A DNA stretch of 64,000 nt, from the NCBI GenBank assembly GCA_011524525.1, contig WTKE01000112.1, positions 4,020-68,019 on the forward strand. Direction: 5' to 3'. This stretch comes from Bacillus sp. (in: firmicutes) (GTDB lineage: Bacteria > Bacillota > Bacilli > Bacillales > Cytobacillaceae). The position numbers and the translations under genes are program-made. The notes beneath the pieces are model-generated. The model made no database searches and was not told where the DNA came from. It saw only the letters and a program-made list of their open reading frames with translations. Shown here in pieces: positions 33,665-40,919 of this stretch (its first letter is position 1; each line of letters starts with the position of its first letter).

Positions 33665-36082
33665 TTAAAGCTTCACTCGCTGTAACCGTAATGCGTTTAA
33701 CACAACTGATACGGAGCTGAAGGCCATGGCTGCTCCCGCTAACCACGGAGCTAAGAAGCCAAGTGCGGCAATCGGAATGCCTAATGTGTTGTAGGCGAAT
33801 GCCCAGAATAGATTTTGCTTGATATTTGTGATCGTCTTTTTGCTCATAAAGATGGCGTCTGCAATGCTGTTTAAGTCCCCTCGGATAAGCGTAATGTCCG
33901 CTGCTTCCATGGCCACATCGGTACCTGTTCCAATCGCCATCCCGATATCAGCGATTGCCAATGCTGGAGCATCATTGATTCCATCGCCAACCATCGCCAC
34001 TTTCTTTCCAGCCGCCTGCAGTTTTTTCACTTCCTCGGCTTTTCCTTCTGGAAGCACTTCGGCAATGACGCGATCTACGCCTGCTTCTTTTGCAATTGCT
34101 TGAGCCGTTTGCTCATTGTCACCCGTAATCATGATGACTTCAAGTCCCATATCCTTCAAGCGTGCAATGGCAGATCGTGAGGTTTCTTTAATCGTATCAG
34201 CCACTGCAACAATACCAGCAAAAGCACCATCAACTGCTACTAGCATCGCTGTTTTCCCTTCTTTTTCAAAAGAAACCATATTTTCGAGAACGGATTCGGC
34301 CACATCAATTTCGTATTTCCTCATCAAACGACGAGTCCCGACTAACACATCTTTTCCAGCAACCAAAGCCTTAATTCCGAACCCAGGAATAGCTTCAAAC
34401 TGAGACACATCGACGAGCGCACTTCCCTTTTCCTTAATTCCTTCCACAATCGCTTGCGCAAGTGGATGCTCAGATTGCTTCTCAGCAGAACCGACCAACA
34501 TTAAGAATTCGTCTTCATTCATGGAAGTTACTACATCCGTTAATACCGGCTTTCCATTAGTGATCGTTCCCGTTTTATCAAGAATGACCGTTTGAATGCG
34601 GTGCGTCATTTCTAAGTGCTCTCCGCCTTTAAAAAGAATCCCGTATTCTGCTGCACGACCAGATCCTGCCATAATTGAAGTTGGAGTAGCGAGACCAAGC
34701 GCACAAGGACAAGCAATCACTAAAACGGCAATTAATTTTTCTAATGCTTCTGGGAAGTCCCCAGGTGCGACCCAGAAAATCCATACAAGGAATGTTACAA
34801 CGGCAATTCCGACTACGATCGGTACAAAAATACCTGAAATAGAATCCGCCAAGCGCTGAATCGGTGCCTTTGAACCTTGTGCTTCCTCTACGACCTTAAT
34901 GATTTGTGCAAGTGCTGTGTCCTTCCCGACTTTCGTTGCTTGCACCTTTAAAAATCCATTTTTATTCAGAGTGGCTCCAATGACCATATCACCAACTGTT
35001 TTATCAACTGGAACACTTTCACCTGTGAGCATGCTCTCATCAAGTGCGGACTGACCTTCTAAAATGACACCATCCACAGGAATCTTCTCCCCAGGCTTAA
35101 CCAGCAACACATCGCCAGCAATGACCTGCTCTAACGGAATTTCTACTTCCGCTCCATCACGAACAACAAGAGCTGTTTTTGCTTGAAGCCCCATGAGCTT
35201 TTTAATCGCCTCTGAAGATCGCCCTTTTGCTTTCACTTCGAACAATTTCCCTAATATGATTAACGTGATTAATACGGCACTTGTTTCAAAATACAATCCC
35301 ACTCCATGTGCGCTATGACCAATCGTACCAATGGCAATATACACACTGTAAAAATAAGCAGCTGAGGTACCCAGTGCAACAAGCACATCCATGTTGGCAC
35401 TTTTGTTTCGCAGTGCTTTATAGGCACCTACATAAAACTGCTTACCAATGAAAAATTGGACAGGTGTGGCTAAAGCCATTTGTACCCATGGATTCATGAA
35501 TGCTTCGGGAACATATAGAAAGGAGGTAAACGTAAAGTGCCCTGCCATTGCCCACAAAAGTGGGAGAGATAAGATCAAAGAGAAAATAAACTTTCTTTGC
35601 TGCTTCTCAATTTCCTTTAACCGATGATCGACTGTTTCCTTTTGATTTTCGTCGGATTTTACTGTTGCCCCATATCCAAGTTTTTCTACTTTTTGAACCA
35701 AATCCGTCACAGATACAGCCGCTGGATTGTATTCAACAGATGCTTTTTCTAGAGCAAGGTTCACGTTGGCACCGACCACACCATCAAGTTTGTTTAAGCC
35801 TTTCTCTATCCGTGTGGCACAAGCTGCACAGGTCATACCTGTCACGTTTAGCTCTGCTTTTTCAGAGATTACGTCATATCCAAGCGCACGAATTTTCTCT
35901 TGAATGTTAGCTGGTCCTGTTACAGCAGCATCAAACTTTACCGTCGCTTTTTCGAGAGCTAAATTTACATTTGCATCCGTGACTCCATCCATTTTTTTCA
36001 GACCTTTTTCAATGCGAGTAGAACACGCAGCACAAGTCATACCGGTAATTTGAAATTGGCTTTCTAGTACTTTTTCACTCAT
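33665..36082 (-). CDS. copA: Copper-exporting P1B-1 ATPase
   Basis: Two GMTCAAC HMA domains; TGES, CPC, DKTGT, SEHPL, YN and MAFSS motifs. Confidence 0.96.
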
Positions 36083-36096
36083 ATGAAAAACTCCTT

Positions 36097-36113
36097 ATAC
36101 CTATATAGGGTAT
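36097..36113. promoter_or_regulatory. CsoR operator before copA
   Basis: ATACCTATATAGGGTAT matches the TACC...GGTA CsoR-type inverted repeat. Confidence 0.75.
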
Positions 36114-36180
36114 ATTTTTTTGAAAAGAGAACGTGCTATTTCTAGCACGATATCTTTTTTGTCTAGCTCCGCTTTTCTAT

Positions 36181-36387
36181 TTACTTCACATCATAACCTT
36201 GGTCATCAATCGTTTCCTTAATTGAATCTAATGATACTTTGTCAGCATCAAACTCTACAGCAACGGACTTGTTTTCTAGGTCAACCTTAACAGTTGATAC
36301 TCCTGCTAATTCCCCAACGCTTCCTTCTACCGCTTTTACGCAGTGTCCGCATGACATACCTTCTACATGTAGTGTAACTTTTTCCAT
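36181..36387 (-). CDS. copZ: Copper chaperone
   Basis: GMSCGHC; ends DQGYDVK. Confidence 0.95.
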   Translation of the reverse strand: MEKVTLHVEGMSCGHCVKAVEGSVGELAGVSTVKVDLENKSVAVEFDADKVSLDSIKETIDDQGYDVK

Positions 36388-36399
36388 GATTAACACTCC

Positions 36400-36732
36400 T
36401 TATTTTTTCATTAATTTTTGTATGGTAACCAATACTTCATCTAGAACTTCCATGTCACCTTCTTGTAGTCGATCTACGACACAGCCCTTTAGATGGCCCT
36501 CAAGCAATATTTTCGCAACACTATTTAAAGCCGATTGGGTGGCAGAGATTTGTGTAATAACATCATCACAATAGGTGTCTTTTTCAATTAATCCCTTGAT
36601 TCCACGAATTTGGCCTTCAATGCGGTTTAGTCGTGTGACAAGATTGCTTTTCACTTTATCTGAATGGTGACTTTTCCGATCACTGCTATGGCAGTTTTCC
36701 TCTTCATGTAGCAAAGAATCATCTGGATTCAT
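36400..36732 (-). CDS. csoR: Copper-sensing repressor
   Basis: RLNRIEGQIRGI, YCDD and HLKGC (C-H-C ligands). Confidence 0.93.
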   Translation of the reverse strand: MNPDDSLLHEEENCHSSDRKSHHSDKVKSNLVTRLNRIEGQIRGIKGLIEKDTYCDDVITQISATQSALNSVAKILLEGHLKGCVVDRLQEGDMEVLDEVLVTIQKLMKK

Positions 36733-36860: not shown

Positions 36861-38999
36861 CTATGATTCATCTTTCACTCGAAGTAATCGTAGGCTGTTC
36901 AGTGTCACAATTAATGTGGCTCCCATATCTGCAAAGATGGCAATCCATAATGTAAGCCAACCTGGAACGACTAATAATAGTGCCAACAGCTTTATACCAA
37001 GTGAAAAAGTGATATTTTGTTTAATAATATTTAATGCTTTTCTACTCAACTTTACAGTGTACGGAAGCTTTCTTAAATCATCAGCCATAAGCGCTATATC
37101 CGCTGTTTCAAGGGCAGTATCCGTTCCTGCTCCCCCCATCGCAATGCCAACGGTAGACGCTGCTAAGGCAGGTGCATCATTCACCCCATCACCGACCATA
37201 GCAACTCTCTGGTAAGTGGCGCGTAATTCTTTAATGTATGAAAGCTTTTCTTGCGGAAGAAGATTCGCTTTTACCTCGTTTACTCCTGCCTTCTGTCCAA
37301 TCGCCTTGGCCGTACCGTCATTGTCTCCTGTAAGCATAATGGTCTTTTGCAGTCCGAGTGAGTGAAGCTGTTTTACCACGTCTCTTGTTTCTTCTCGAAT
37401 CTCATCGGCCACTCCCACTAACGCAAGGAATTGTTGGGTCGAACAAACAGCCATCACGGTCTTTCCTTGTTCCTGAAGCCTATTAATTTTTTCACGATAG
37501 ACTGCTGCCAAGCCACCCTTAAGTTGTTCATGAATAAAACTTGGACTTCCCACATAATACTCCGTACCTTCAATTTTCCCAACAATCCCTTTTCCAGTTA
37601 CAGAGGTAAATTCCTCAATTTGTAAATGGTCGTAATTCAATTCCCATTGATCTGCCTTTTTTAAAATAGCAGAGGCAAGTGGATGCTGAGAGACCTTCTC
37701 TAGGGCGGATATAAGAGCAAATGTCTCGTTGGCAGGAATGGCCAGAGCGGTTTCATAGTCGGTGACTACCGGAATTCCCTTAGTTAATGTGCCGGTTTTA
37801 TCAAATGCAATCGCCTTAATGGCTCCCATTTCCTCTAAATGAATGCCACCTTTGATTAATACGCCTCTTTTCGCAGCATTTCCAATCGCTGTTACGATTG
37901 CAACAGGTGTGGAAATAACGAGAGCACATGGACAACCAACCACTAACACAGCCAAACCTTGATAGACCCACTCATTCCAATCAGCGCCGAACAATAACGG
38001 CGGGACAACTCCAACTCCAAGAGCGAATAGCATAATGAGTGGTGTGTAATACTTTGCAAAGCGGTCAACAAATGCCTGTGATGGTGCTCTTTCCGCTTGC
38101 GCTTCTTCAACCAAATGGATGATTTTCGCAATCGTCGTATCTTCCACATGCTTTGTCACCTTTACCTCAAGGAAGCCTTCTTCATTCAGAGTCCCGGCGT
38201 AAACTTCGTCGTTCACTCCCTTTGCAACAGGTACGGACTCTCCAGTAATGGCTGCCTGATTGATGGATGACATGCCTTTTACGATGATGCCATCCATCGC
38301 TAATTTTTGGCCAGGCTTTACAAGCAGAACATCATTAATTTGGATGTCTGCTACGTCAATGACCATCTCTTGAAACCCACGACGTATTATGGCTTCTTTC
38401 GGAGCGATATCCATAAGAGAGCGAATCGATTGGCGAGCTTTATCCATTGAATACGATTCAAGTACTTCACTAATCGCAAACAAGATCACAACGGTTGCCC
38501 CTTCGCCCCATTCACCGATTATCGCAGCTCCAATTACGGCTATGGTCATGAGTGTTTTCATATCAAACTCTAGGCGGAATAGATTTTTGAAGCCTGTCCG
38601 GAACAGGCGGTAACCTCCTAAAATCATGGAAGATGCATAAGCTACCATCGAAAAAAGTGATTCTTCTCCACGGATCTCACCAGTAATCCATCCTATAAGC
38701 AAAAGCACAAAGGAACCAAGAACCATTGCATACTTTTGAAAAAACGGCTCTTTCACTTCTTGAATTCGAGCCTTTTCGGGTTGAACCTTAATACCGTCAA
38801 ATGCACCGGCTTTTTCAATTTCTTCTAGCGTCGCTTCACCAAACACGGTCAGTTTAGCAGCACCAAAGTTTATATTTGCATCCAAAACACCATCCAGGTG
38901 CTTTACGTTCGTTTCGAACTTTTTGGCACAGCTGGCTCAAGAAAGCCCTTGAACGCGGTACACTTGCTTACTATTCATCATTGCAATTGACTTATCCAC
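36861..38999 (-). CDS. cadA: Cd/Zn/Pb-exporting P1B-2 ATPase with an in-frame TGA at codon 21 (recoded, or a nonsense allele)
   Basis: GTG 38999 with AAGGAGGTG SD, overlapping the cadC stop; [48 protein letters not shown] continues in frame into the 674-aa ORF with CPC, DKTGT, HP, K and DMG motifs. Confidence 0.9.
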
Positions 39000-39360
39000 G
39001 TAATGCCACCTCCTTTTGATGGGTAAAGGCGATGTTAACAAGTTGTTTCACATGCTCATCGTCTAAGGAATAGTAGACCAGTTTTCCTTCTTTTCGATAG
39101 GTGGCAAGACCAAGATTTCGAAGGAGACGAAGATGGTGCGAAGCAGTAGCAACCGTGCAGCCAACAATGTTAGCCACATCGCATACGCAAAGCTCCTCTT
39201 CTACACTTAACGAATAAGCTATTTTCACACGTGTGTCATCTGCTAAAGCTTTAAAAAGCTTCGACACCTCCATCGTATTTTGCATACTAAGCTCATTTTT
39301 TACTTTCGTAACCTTCTCCCCATCAAAACAGGTGACCTCACATACATCCTCTTTCACCAT
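38992..39360 (-). CDS. cadC: ArsR/SmtB family Cd-sensing repressor
   Basis: N-terminal CEVTC; ELCVCD; start ATG 39360. Confidence 0.92.
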   Translation of the reverse strand: MVKEDVCEVTCFDGEKVTKVKNELSMQNTMEVSKLFKALADDTRVKIAYSLSVEEELCVCDVANIVGCTVATASHHLRLLRNLGLATYRKEGKLVYYSLDDEHVKQLVNIAFTHQKEVALRG

Positions 39361-39376
39361 TGCACTTCCCCATTTC

Positions 39377-39396
39377 ATTCAAACATTCTTTTGAAT
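39377..39396. promoter_or_regulatory. CadC operator
   Basis: ATTCAAA-N6-TTTGAAT inverted repeat next to a minus-strand TATAAT. Confidence 0.8.
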
Positions 39397-39472
39397 ATTA
39401 TATCATATAGAATGAAATGATATTTGTGACAAAGATAGAAAAAAGAGGACAATTTTGTTGTCCCCTTGCCTA

Positions 39473-40792
39473 TTAATCCGTTGTAGGTTTTTTTCGAAAG
39501 AAGATTTCAGGCTCAAAACGATGTAGTGGATGTGTTCGATTCTGAGCTGGTTCTGCCGAAATCCTAGGAGCCACCTCTGGCCTGCGCGGATCCTGTGCCG
39601 CCCTTGTTAATGACTTGGTTAATGGGCCCCACTTTCTTAACATCATCACAAGAAAAAAGATAACAAGTCCGGTAATTGCAAAGACGAACGAAGGAGAGGC
39701 ATTGTTCACACCGCCTGCATCTAACAGGCGGCCACCTACTGTTTTTCCTCCCGCTTCCCCTAATCCATACACCACATTTGATAACGCAAAGAATAAACTG
39801 ATCAGCTCTGGTTTGGAAAGCTGAGAAATCGTGCTATCTACCGTGGGTAAAATCATCATTTCACCAACAACAAAGATAGCACCACTTACAATAAATAGGA
39901 AAAATCCGTTTGAGAAAAATAACGAAGATATTCCTACCGTAATAAATAATACGCCTACTCCCAGTGCCGAGATCGGATTCATTTTAGTAATAAACCGTTT
40001 GGTTATGAAGCCTTGCAGGGTGATAACGATAAAACTGTTGATCGTCCATATTAATGAGATATTTTTCGGGTTATCCAACACGACTGTTGCTCGCAGTGGC
40101 AGTGCAAGTGAAAACTGTGCATACAGTGCCCAGATCAGGACGGTTACCACACTAAAAATGATAAATGGTCGATGCTTTAATGCTTCCCCATATGCCCCTA
40201 ATGGCAGTGATGGACATGGGATGTCGCCGCAATTTTTCGGAAGTAAGAGCCAACTCACTAAAGCCAGGCCTACATAAATAGCAGCTGCAATAAAGAAGAT
40301 GGTTCTTGAGGCTTCAGCTAAAAGAAAAAAAATCACAAGGCCACTTATACCTGTCCCCACATTGGCCGCAATCCCACGAAGAGAAAAAGCAGTTGTTTGA
40401 TTTCCGCTTGAAGAAGCAAATGCCGCAATCGCTGCCTTCGTGGAGGGAGCATTCAATCCATTCCCAAGACCCATGATAGCCGCTGAAAACAGAAGAAACA
40501 GGTGATCGGTAAATATGCCAAAGCTCATTACTCCACCGGCCGTAATCAAAGCACCCAAGCCGATGATAAAACGTCGCCCTATTCGGTCCGCAAGTACCCC
40601 TCCTGTAATACTTCCGAATTGAAAAGCAATAGCTATCGTTGCTAAGATTGTCCCAATCTGTACCAAGGTTAATTCTGTTTCAGTTGTTAGTATGATAGGA
40701 AGCATCGGCATGACAAGATAGGACCCTAGATGAGCAAGCAATACTCCTAGCAGAAGAATTTGCAACGGACGATCAAGTTTTCGGTATTCCAT
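39473..40792 (-). CDS. MFS transporter
   Basis: GVLADRIGRR motif A; about 12 TM segments. Confidence 0.88.
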   Translation of the reverse strand: MEYRKLDRPLQILLLGVLLAHLGSYLVMPMLPIILTTETELTLVQIGTILATIAIAFQFGSITGGVLADRIGRRFIIGLGALITAGGVMSFGIFTDHLFLLFSAAIMGLGNGLNAPSTKAAIAAFASSSGNQTTAFSLRGIAANVGTGISGLVIFFLLAEASRTIFFIAAAIYVGLALVSWLLLPKNCGDIPCPSLPLGAYGEALKHRPFIIFSVVTVLIWALYAQFSLALPLRATVVLDNPKNISLIWTINSFIVITLQGFITKRFITKMNPISALGVGVLFITVGISSLFFSNGFFLFIVSGAIFVVGEMMILPTVDSTISQLSKPELISLFFALSNVVYGLGEAGGKTVGGRLLDAGGVNNASPSFVFAITGLVIFFLVMMLRKWGPLTKSLTRAAQDPRRPEVAPRISAEPAQNRTHPLHRFEPEIFFRKKPTTD

Positions 40793-40919
40793 TAATCCCA
40801 CTTTGAATACACCCTTCCAGTGTTCAACGTTTCTTTTTCTACTTTTCCCCAATACACCCGATTTATGAAAAAAGCCTGCTGTCCCGATCGTTAAGATGGG
40901 AACAACAGGCTTTCAAACA

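Follow-up and report, generated by a model that had tools for sequence, protein, structure and literature searches.

A conserved in-frame UGA in the cadA gene of a Bacillaceae cadCA operon probably encodes selenocysteine and is followed by two tandem RNA hairpins

We analysed a 64,000-nt stretch of DNA from Bacillus sp. (in: firmicutes) (assembly GCA_011524525.1, contig WTKE01000112.1, positions 4,020 to 68,019 of the forward strand), referred to here as the window and numbered from its first letter. The source assembly is a metagenome-assembled genome (MAG) of 2.9 Mb in 113 contigs that is 67% complete. On its minus strand, the window carries a cadCA operon in which cadA, the gene of a heavy-metal P-type ATPase, contains a single in-frame TGA at a metal-binding position. 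The first gene of the operon, cadC (38992-39378, minus strand), encodes an ArsR/SmtB metalloregulator (NF033788, 95.8 bits; PF01022); the mechanical list of open reading frames (ORFs) begins it at ATG 39378, and its likely start is ATG 39360 (MVKEDVCEVTC...). The inverted repeat ATTCAAA-N6-TTTGAAT (7-6-7; 39377-39396, minus strand), read from the sequence just 3' of a TATAAT, is presumably the operator, on the model of the pI258-type cad operator. The cadC stop codon (TAA, 38994-38992) overlaps by 8 nt the GTG of cadA at 38999, which is preceded by the Shine-Dalgarno sequence AAGGAGGTG (39007-39015, minus strand) with a 7-nt spacer. The family matches of CadC, the 8-nt overlap and the predicted operator identify a cadCA operon, and the layout, with an ArsR/SmtB repressor gene upstream and an operator-like inverted repeat, is that of the Staphylococcus aureus pI258-type operon.

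When the one TGA is read through, cadA extends over 712 codons plus the stop (36861-38999, minus strand). The TGA is codon 21 (38937-38939, minus strand), and the 691 other codons are open as far as the stop at 36861. In the mechanical ORF list, cadA begins at a TTG (38883-38885, minus strand) and has a product of 674 aa; this TTG lies inside the 3' arm of a hairpin, H2, described below. A preliminary description of the window had already noted the TTG start of the ORF track at 38885, and had placed the true start at GTG 38999, with its Shine-Dalgarno sequence and its overlap with the cadC stop, and a TGA at codon 21 of an otherwise intact gene; this gene model holds throughout.

Read through the TGA, the product matches the heavy-metal P-type ATPase family TIGR01525 with 597.5 bits (cut-off 346.25) and the cadmium family TIGR01512 with 523.4 bits (cut-off 313.5). 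The models NF008262 and NF033775 also cover its full length, at scores under their equivalog cut-offs. The protein has an N-terminal HMA domain followed by the E1-E2 and hydrolase domains, and the motifs ITGES, CPC, DKTGT and GDGVNDAP are present in the translation. Judged by these domains and motifs, the cadA product is a P1B-2 (Zn/Cd/Pb) P-type ATPase of the CadA/ZntA type. The UGA falls within the Pfam HMA match (residues 13-63) and aligns with the first Cd-binding Cys of the metal-binding domain of Listeria monocytogenes CadA (PDB 2AJ0/2AJ1), to which 68 positions align with the CxxC in register (2AJ0, E 9e-24). Its earlier assignment to the first Cys of the HMA CxxC is confirmed by both matches. 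The codon thus takes the first position of a U-A-S-C motif, the second Cys of which is the TGT at 38928-38930 (minus strand), whereas Listeria CadA and pI258-type CadA have Cys at both positions.

To assess conservation of the TGA, 40 related genomes were searched with the first 140 residues of CadA, stops being read through. Exactly one TGA is present in many orthologues from the same genus, from other genera and from other families, and the same codon is TGA in 13 of the 17 loci fetched from these relatives. A pattern scan with one genome per species returned 80 loci; the motif could be placed in 79 of them, with TGA at this codon in 60, TGT in 16 and TGC in 3. TGA carriers include Neobacillus, Mesobacillus, Robertmurraya, Cytobacillus, Rossellomorea, Fredinandcohnia, Bacillus infantis and Salinibacillus, and the nearest ones are 'Bacillus coreaensis' (89%) and Robertmurraya korlensis (83%). 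A second sample of 200 genomes, drawn evenly across the order, contains a cadA with one TGA in 44 genomes from 22 GTDB families, and all 42 of the matches fetched have the TGA at this codon. The column totals 104 distinct TGA sequences (from at least 22 GTDB families) and 21 distinct Cys sequences, so that TGA is the majority form among orthologues and is not unique to this assembly. From this comparison of orthologous sequences, we conclude that the in-frame TGA of cadA is a genuine conserved recoding site. Public metagenome data also contain it: contigs from four runs have the same TGA, with a word depth of 28 and 21, and two of these runs may be the source of the assembly. Another sample of the same study yielded a contig of low depth (3.5x) in which the codon just before the TGA has the synonymous change TCT>TCC (window position 38940) and the TGA is kept.

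Entropy at each codon position was compared between 68 distinct TGA sequences and the 21 Cys forms. At codons -9 to -1 of the TGA forms, entropy is mostly near 0 at first and second positions and 0.8-2 bits, mostly above 1, at third positions; this coding pattern implies that the stretch 5' of the TGA is translated in the cadA frame. On the 3' side, the third positions of codons +6 to +10 and +13 to +16 have an entropy of 0-0.3 bits in the TGA forms, against 0.8-1.9 bits at the same codons of the Cys forms. The low synonymous variation marks a putative RNA element at about +16 to +52 that is specific to the TGA forms.

Applied to 65 TGA sequences, RNAalifold predicts tandem hairpins, H1 (GUUC-GAAAM-GAAC) and H2 ((A/G)CACC-UGGAU-GGUGU). 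In the window, H1 (GUUC-GAAAC-GAAC; 38907-38919, minus strand) spans +18 to +30 relative to the UGA, with a loop that starts 21 nt after it and a pair probability of about 1.0. H2 (38883-38905, minus strand) forms 9 bp here around the core GCACC-UGGAU-GGUGU (38901-38887; +36 to +50), and its loop starts 40 nt after the UGA. Compensatory changes are found at four to six pairs across the two hairpins, with GC/AU and CG/UA replacements in H1, AU/GC at the central pair of H2 (columns 41:51, with a GU intermediate) and AU/CG/GC at the base of H2 (columns 37:55). Sliding the partners by 1-3 columns as a control lowers pairing from 88% to 32-50%. In sequences where the His of HLDGV is replaced by Arg (CAC to CGY), GGU changes to GGC and the pair is kept; the constraint therefore acts on the RNA and not on the protein. 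An Rfam scan of 38700-39500 gave no match near any gathering score.

H2 occurs in 96 of the 104 distinct TGA forms and the remaining eight have a hairpin with a GUU loop, so that every TGA form has one or the other. Among the 21 Cys forms, H2 is kept in three, all of them close kin of TGA forms, and H1 persists in ten; H1 is paired in nearly all TGA forms. The GUU-loop hairpin, termed class II (CUGCUCR-GUU-YGAGCRG), has 7 bp and a loop at +18 to +20, with 17 nt between it and the UGA; the hairpin is 100% paired and shows AU/GC compensation. Its carriers are eight divergent TGA-cadA loci without H2 (L156, L157, L173, L187, L188, L200, L201 and L202), which have the motif AA[QR]FE[QR]N at this place.

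The preliminary description had proposed a different structure, a single long fold (-12.8 kcal/mol) in which the GUUC/GAAC helix is extended by the outer stems CCAG/CUGG and GUGC/GCAC and the apical loop GAAAC lies 21 nt after the UGA. This hairpin is foldable and its inner helix, which corresponds to H1, is conserved. The outer stems, which compete with H2, are unsupported: they show no two-sided changes and are unpaired at two positions in 43/65 and 45/65 sequences, and the second hairpin, H2, had been missed. The structure that is conserved with compensatory changes downstream of the UGA is H1 and H2, and the comparative data favour this pair over the long fold.

The source genome contains a tRNA for selenocysteine (Sec) (64.6 bits; anticodon UCA in ARAGORN), selA, and a Sec-type selD adjoining selA. 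Of the 40 relatives, 31 have both selA and selB, and 21 of these carry TGA-cadA; the nine relatives that lack these two genes have no TGA-cadA. The 200-genome sample gives the same picture, with TGA-cadA in 43 of 99 selA-positive and 1 of 101 selA-negative genomes (Fisher p 6e-15, a value overstated by the non-independence of kin); put differently, selA is present in 43 of the 44 carriers compared to 99 of the 200 genomes overall. The selD gene served as an internal control, and has TGA in every selA-positive relative and Cys in the selA-negative ones. Its second, GUU-loop hairpin is conserved in all Sec-type selD genes of the relatives and absent from Cys-type selD. The selD of the source genome (G000 contig C53:20306-21232) is itself a selenoprotein gene with TGA at the catalytic position (STKAG-U-GCK), followed by the hairpins GGUCC-UGA-GGACU and GCGCA-AGUUU-UGCGU. 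Three relatives (G015, G018 and G022) have a second, more divergent selD-like gene that also contains one in-frame TGA, and in a fourth (G017) the selD match lies within a 694-codon open frame and may be a fusion. As regards other selenoproteins of the source genome, the formate dehydrogenase model TIGR01591 gave five matches, none with an in-frame stop. A genome-wide screen for a UGA that has a Cys beside it, a frame open in both directions and a G-loop hairpin gave 15 hits in the assembled two thirds of the genome. Only selD and cadA are convincing among them, and this coarse screen does not register Sec sites that lack a neighbouring Cys.

A FastTree phylogeny of cadA, built on about 570 columns after removal of the N-terminal 60, requires 10 changes between Sec and Cys, at least four of which are forced by well-supported branches. 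In the clade of the present cadA (six rows, support 100), two Cys forms are nested among four Sec forms. The H2 core is intact in one of the nested Cys forms and lacks a single pair in the other, and these remnants indicate a recent replacement of Sec by Cys.

Taken together, the conservation of the TGA, the link to selA, the presence of Sec genes and the covarying downstream RNA support the earlier proposal of a seleno-CadA. From the sequence, the orthologues, the 2AJ0 alignment and the run contigs, we consider it very probable that the UGA of cadA encodes selenocysteine in a full-length Zn/Cd/Pb P1B-2 pump, with U-A-S-C in its HMA domain. The Sec-independent readthrough that had been offered as a fallback is unneeded, because the lineage has Sec machinery. 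In the mechanism that we envisage, translation would start at GTG 38999, or at the ATGs six or seven codons further on, and would be coupled to that of cadC. The UGA at codon 21 would be decoded by SelB with Sec-tRNA(Sec), recruited by a coding-region selenocysteine insertion sequence (SECIS) made of H1 and H2 in tandem, with H2 as the SelB site and H1 as a folded spacer. Within the pump's regulatory domain, the resulting selenolate/thiolate pair would bind Cd, Zn or Pb, and when selenium is absent the ribosome would halt after 20 residues.

Several observations weigh against the assignment of selenocysteine. The literature searched holds no experimental proof of Sec in any CadA, and reviews call the family predicted, with a role to be investigated. 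No selB was found in the 67%-complete source genome, where PF09107 and TIGR00475 match only the GTPase domains of other translation factors, and where blastn with the selB loci of three same-genus genomes gave no match. Since selB is present in nine of nine same-genus genomes (55 kb from selA in a complete one), it probably lies in the missing third of the assembly. Of the Sec genes that the preliminary description had singled out as a check, tRNA-Sec(UCA), selA and selD were thus found and selB was not. The single selA-negative carrier, genome G209, has an intact TGA-cadCA with both hairpins and neither selA nor tRNA-Sec. This copy (L154) is located on an 8.7-kb contig (C3), where its neighbours are copC/copD, dsbA/dsbB-like genes and an ISL3 transposase, a context that fits a metal-resistance island transferred recently to a host unable to decode it. 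G209 also holds two Cys-type cadA copies. In the sequence of the window, the long fold and the H1 plus H2 structure (-12.9 kcal/mol) are nearly equal in energy. Finally, neither H1 nor H2 on its own conforms to the published model of the bacterial SECIS (bSECIS).

The consensus bSECIS (PMC13188914, Fig. 2, summarising Zhang and Gladyshev 2005) has a loop of 3-9 nt with a G among its two leading nucleotides, usually as G[G/U], a stem of 4-16 bp, a spacing of 16-37 nt from the UGA and a minimum free energy (MFE) of -7.5 kcal/mol or lower (PMC13188914). H1 fits this model in its 21-nt spacing, but has only 4 bp and -2.7 kcal/mol and a loop that starts with GA; its sequence is also partly forced by the F-E-x-N codons. 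H2 fits in its loop (UGGAU), stem and energy (-10.2 kcal/mol), with a 40-nt spacing that exceeds the range by 3 nt. The cadA element resembles the consensus bSECIS and the Escherichia coli fdhF SECIS in being a coding-region structure directly 3' of the UGA with a small apical loop and an early G, and its combined folding energy is below -7.5 kcal/mol as in the consensus. It differs from both in having two tandem hairpins in place of a single one. Two tandem hairpins also follow the UGA at the catalytic Cys position of the Sec-type selD in the same genome and in relatives (GGUCC-UGA-GGACY, then GCGCAA-GUU-UUGCGY). The selD hairpins, whose loops are at +17 and +33, lie nearer to the UGA, and the GUU loop is that of the class II cadA hairpin and not of the majority form.

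Of the two cadA hairpins, H2 is probably the one bound by SelB, with H1 as a folded spacer, because its UGGAU loop fits G[G/U] and because H2 as a whole is near-invariant and is quickly lost once TGA becomes TGY. Also compatible with selenocysteine, and in our view possible though distinctly less likely, is an arrangement in which the long-fold hairpin is the SECIS, SelB binds the GAAAC loop of H1 as its apex, and H2 is accessory or alternates with the outer stems. The spacing of H1 within 16-37 nt and its G-initiated loop agree with such an arrangement, as do the pairing of H1 across almost all Sec forms, its GC/AU and CG/UA compensation, the placement of a GUU-loop hairpin over the same stretch in the eight divergent genes without H2, and the fact that the long fold is the predicted MFE structure in two same-genus sequences. 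However, the weak stem of H1 is largely codon-forced and is kept in 10 of 21 Cys forms, and its loop begins with GA instead of G[G/U]. The long fold moreover depends on outer stems that lack two-sided changes and are unpaired in about two thirds of the sequences, and it leaves the invariant 3' arm of H2 (GGU GU) unexplained.

An explanation without selenocysteine is that the UGA is a regulatory stop, which would end translation after 20 residues and leave a pump without the HMA domain to be made by reinitiation or from an independent start, here TTG 38885. In a variant, a near-cognate tRNA would read through the UGA and insert Trp or Cys, and the hairpins would tune termination or reinitiation and would not bind SelB. 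P1B ATPases can function without their N-terminal domain, gene callers do call downstream starts that give products of 661-680 aa, and the G209 copy combines an intact TGA-cadA and both hairpins with a host lacking selA and tRNA-Sec. Against this stand the presence of selA in all carriers of the order sample except G209, the absence of TGA from the selA-negative relatives of the first set, and the location of the G209 copy next to a transposase, which fits recent transfer. The proposed downstream start is also not conserved, "codon 18" (TTG 38885 here) being TCT, GTT, TTT or ATC elsewhere, and both the codons 5' of the UGA and the HMA domain 3' of it are under protein-level constraint. We therefore regard the regulatory stop and its readthrough variant, even when taken jointly, as improbable. 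The weakest explanation is that the TGA marks a pseudogene with a recent nonsense mutation of TGY, or an artefact of sequencing or assembly; the preliminary description had kept a nonsense mutation or a sequencing error as a residual option. A single base separates TGA from TGC or TGT and the MAG is incomplete, but more than 100 distinct orthologues with the same TGA, the otherwise intact cadA, the contigs from four runs with a word depth of up to 28 and a SECIS-type constraint specific to the TGA forms make it so improbable that we treat it as excluded.

Directly downstream of cadA, on the minus strand, lies a copper-resistance operon (33665-36732) composed of csoR (PF02583, 36400-36732), copZ (HMA, 36181-36396) and copA (33665-36082), the last encoding a protein of 805 aa with two HMA domains. 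A major facilitator superfamily (MFS) transporter gene is located upstream of cadC (39473-40852). The cadCA operon, the copper operon and the MFS gene together form a metal-resistance cluster.

Heavy-metal P-type ATPases with UxxC (TIGR01525) are already listed as a predicted selenoprotein family (PMC13188914, PMC9312934, PMC1976440), and ranked in 2016 among the top 20 bacterial selenoprotein families, with 32 proteins in 25 organisms (PMC5029168). The supplement of the latter paper gives counts per organism without family names; its Sec-using Bacillus species, which have up to six selenoproteins each, include B. massiliosenegalensis JC6, whose cadA carries the TGA in our analysis. According to a 2026 review, the roles of transporter selenoproteins still need investigation. 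By its sequence, the cadA of the window is a member of this known predicted family, with which it shares membership in TIGR01525, a probable Sec at the first Cys position of the HMA CxxC, a coding-region hairpin and Cys-containing homologues. What sets this member apart is that it is a CadA of a Bacillaceae cadCA operon with a tandem two-hairpin SECIS and a G[G/U] loop 40 nt from the UGA. Literature searches returned no paper containing both 'selenoprotein' and 'Neobacillus', and no relevant paper linking CadA, cadmium, UGA and selenocysteine. A protein database search returned no full-length CadA annotated with Sec, only Cys forms and truncated calls, which is weak evidence as U is read as C. 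Public gene calls for Sec-type cadA (P0006, P0011, P0016 and similar) have 661-680 residues and lack the HMA domain.

The appropriate annotation of this cadA would thus be a selenoprotein of 712 residues, and neither a 674-residue pump without an HMA domain nor a pseudogene. The same correction would apply to a large share of Bacillaceae cadA genes, given the 44 carriers among the 200 genomes sampled from the order. The remaining points of interest are the tandem-hairpin SECIS beyond the spacing range, the second SECIS class and the frequency of the Sec form in Bacillaceae. Both the tandem pair, with its loop at +40, and the single GUU-loop hairpin bear on how strictly the spacing rule of bacterial SECIS elements is to be taken. 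To our knowledge, no Cd/Zn/Pb pump with a selenolate ligand in its regulatory metal site has been characterised, and the natural Sec/Cys pairs within single genera provide material for comparing the two ligands. We tentatively suggest that the majority SECIS of Bacillaceae cadA is a distinct bipartite class, in which a spacer hairpin is followed by a SelB-binding UGGAU hairpin 40 nt from the UGA, beyond the 16-37 nt range that programs for finding SECIS elements apply. If true, this could explain the truncation of these genes by gene callers and in protein databases, and synthesis of the pump from the only cadA copy in the assembly would depend on selenium, tying Cd/Zn resistance to the selenium status of the cell.

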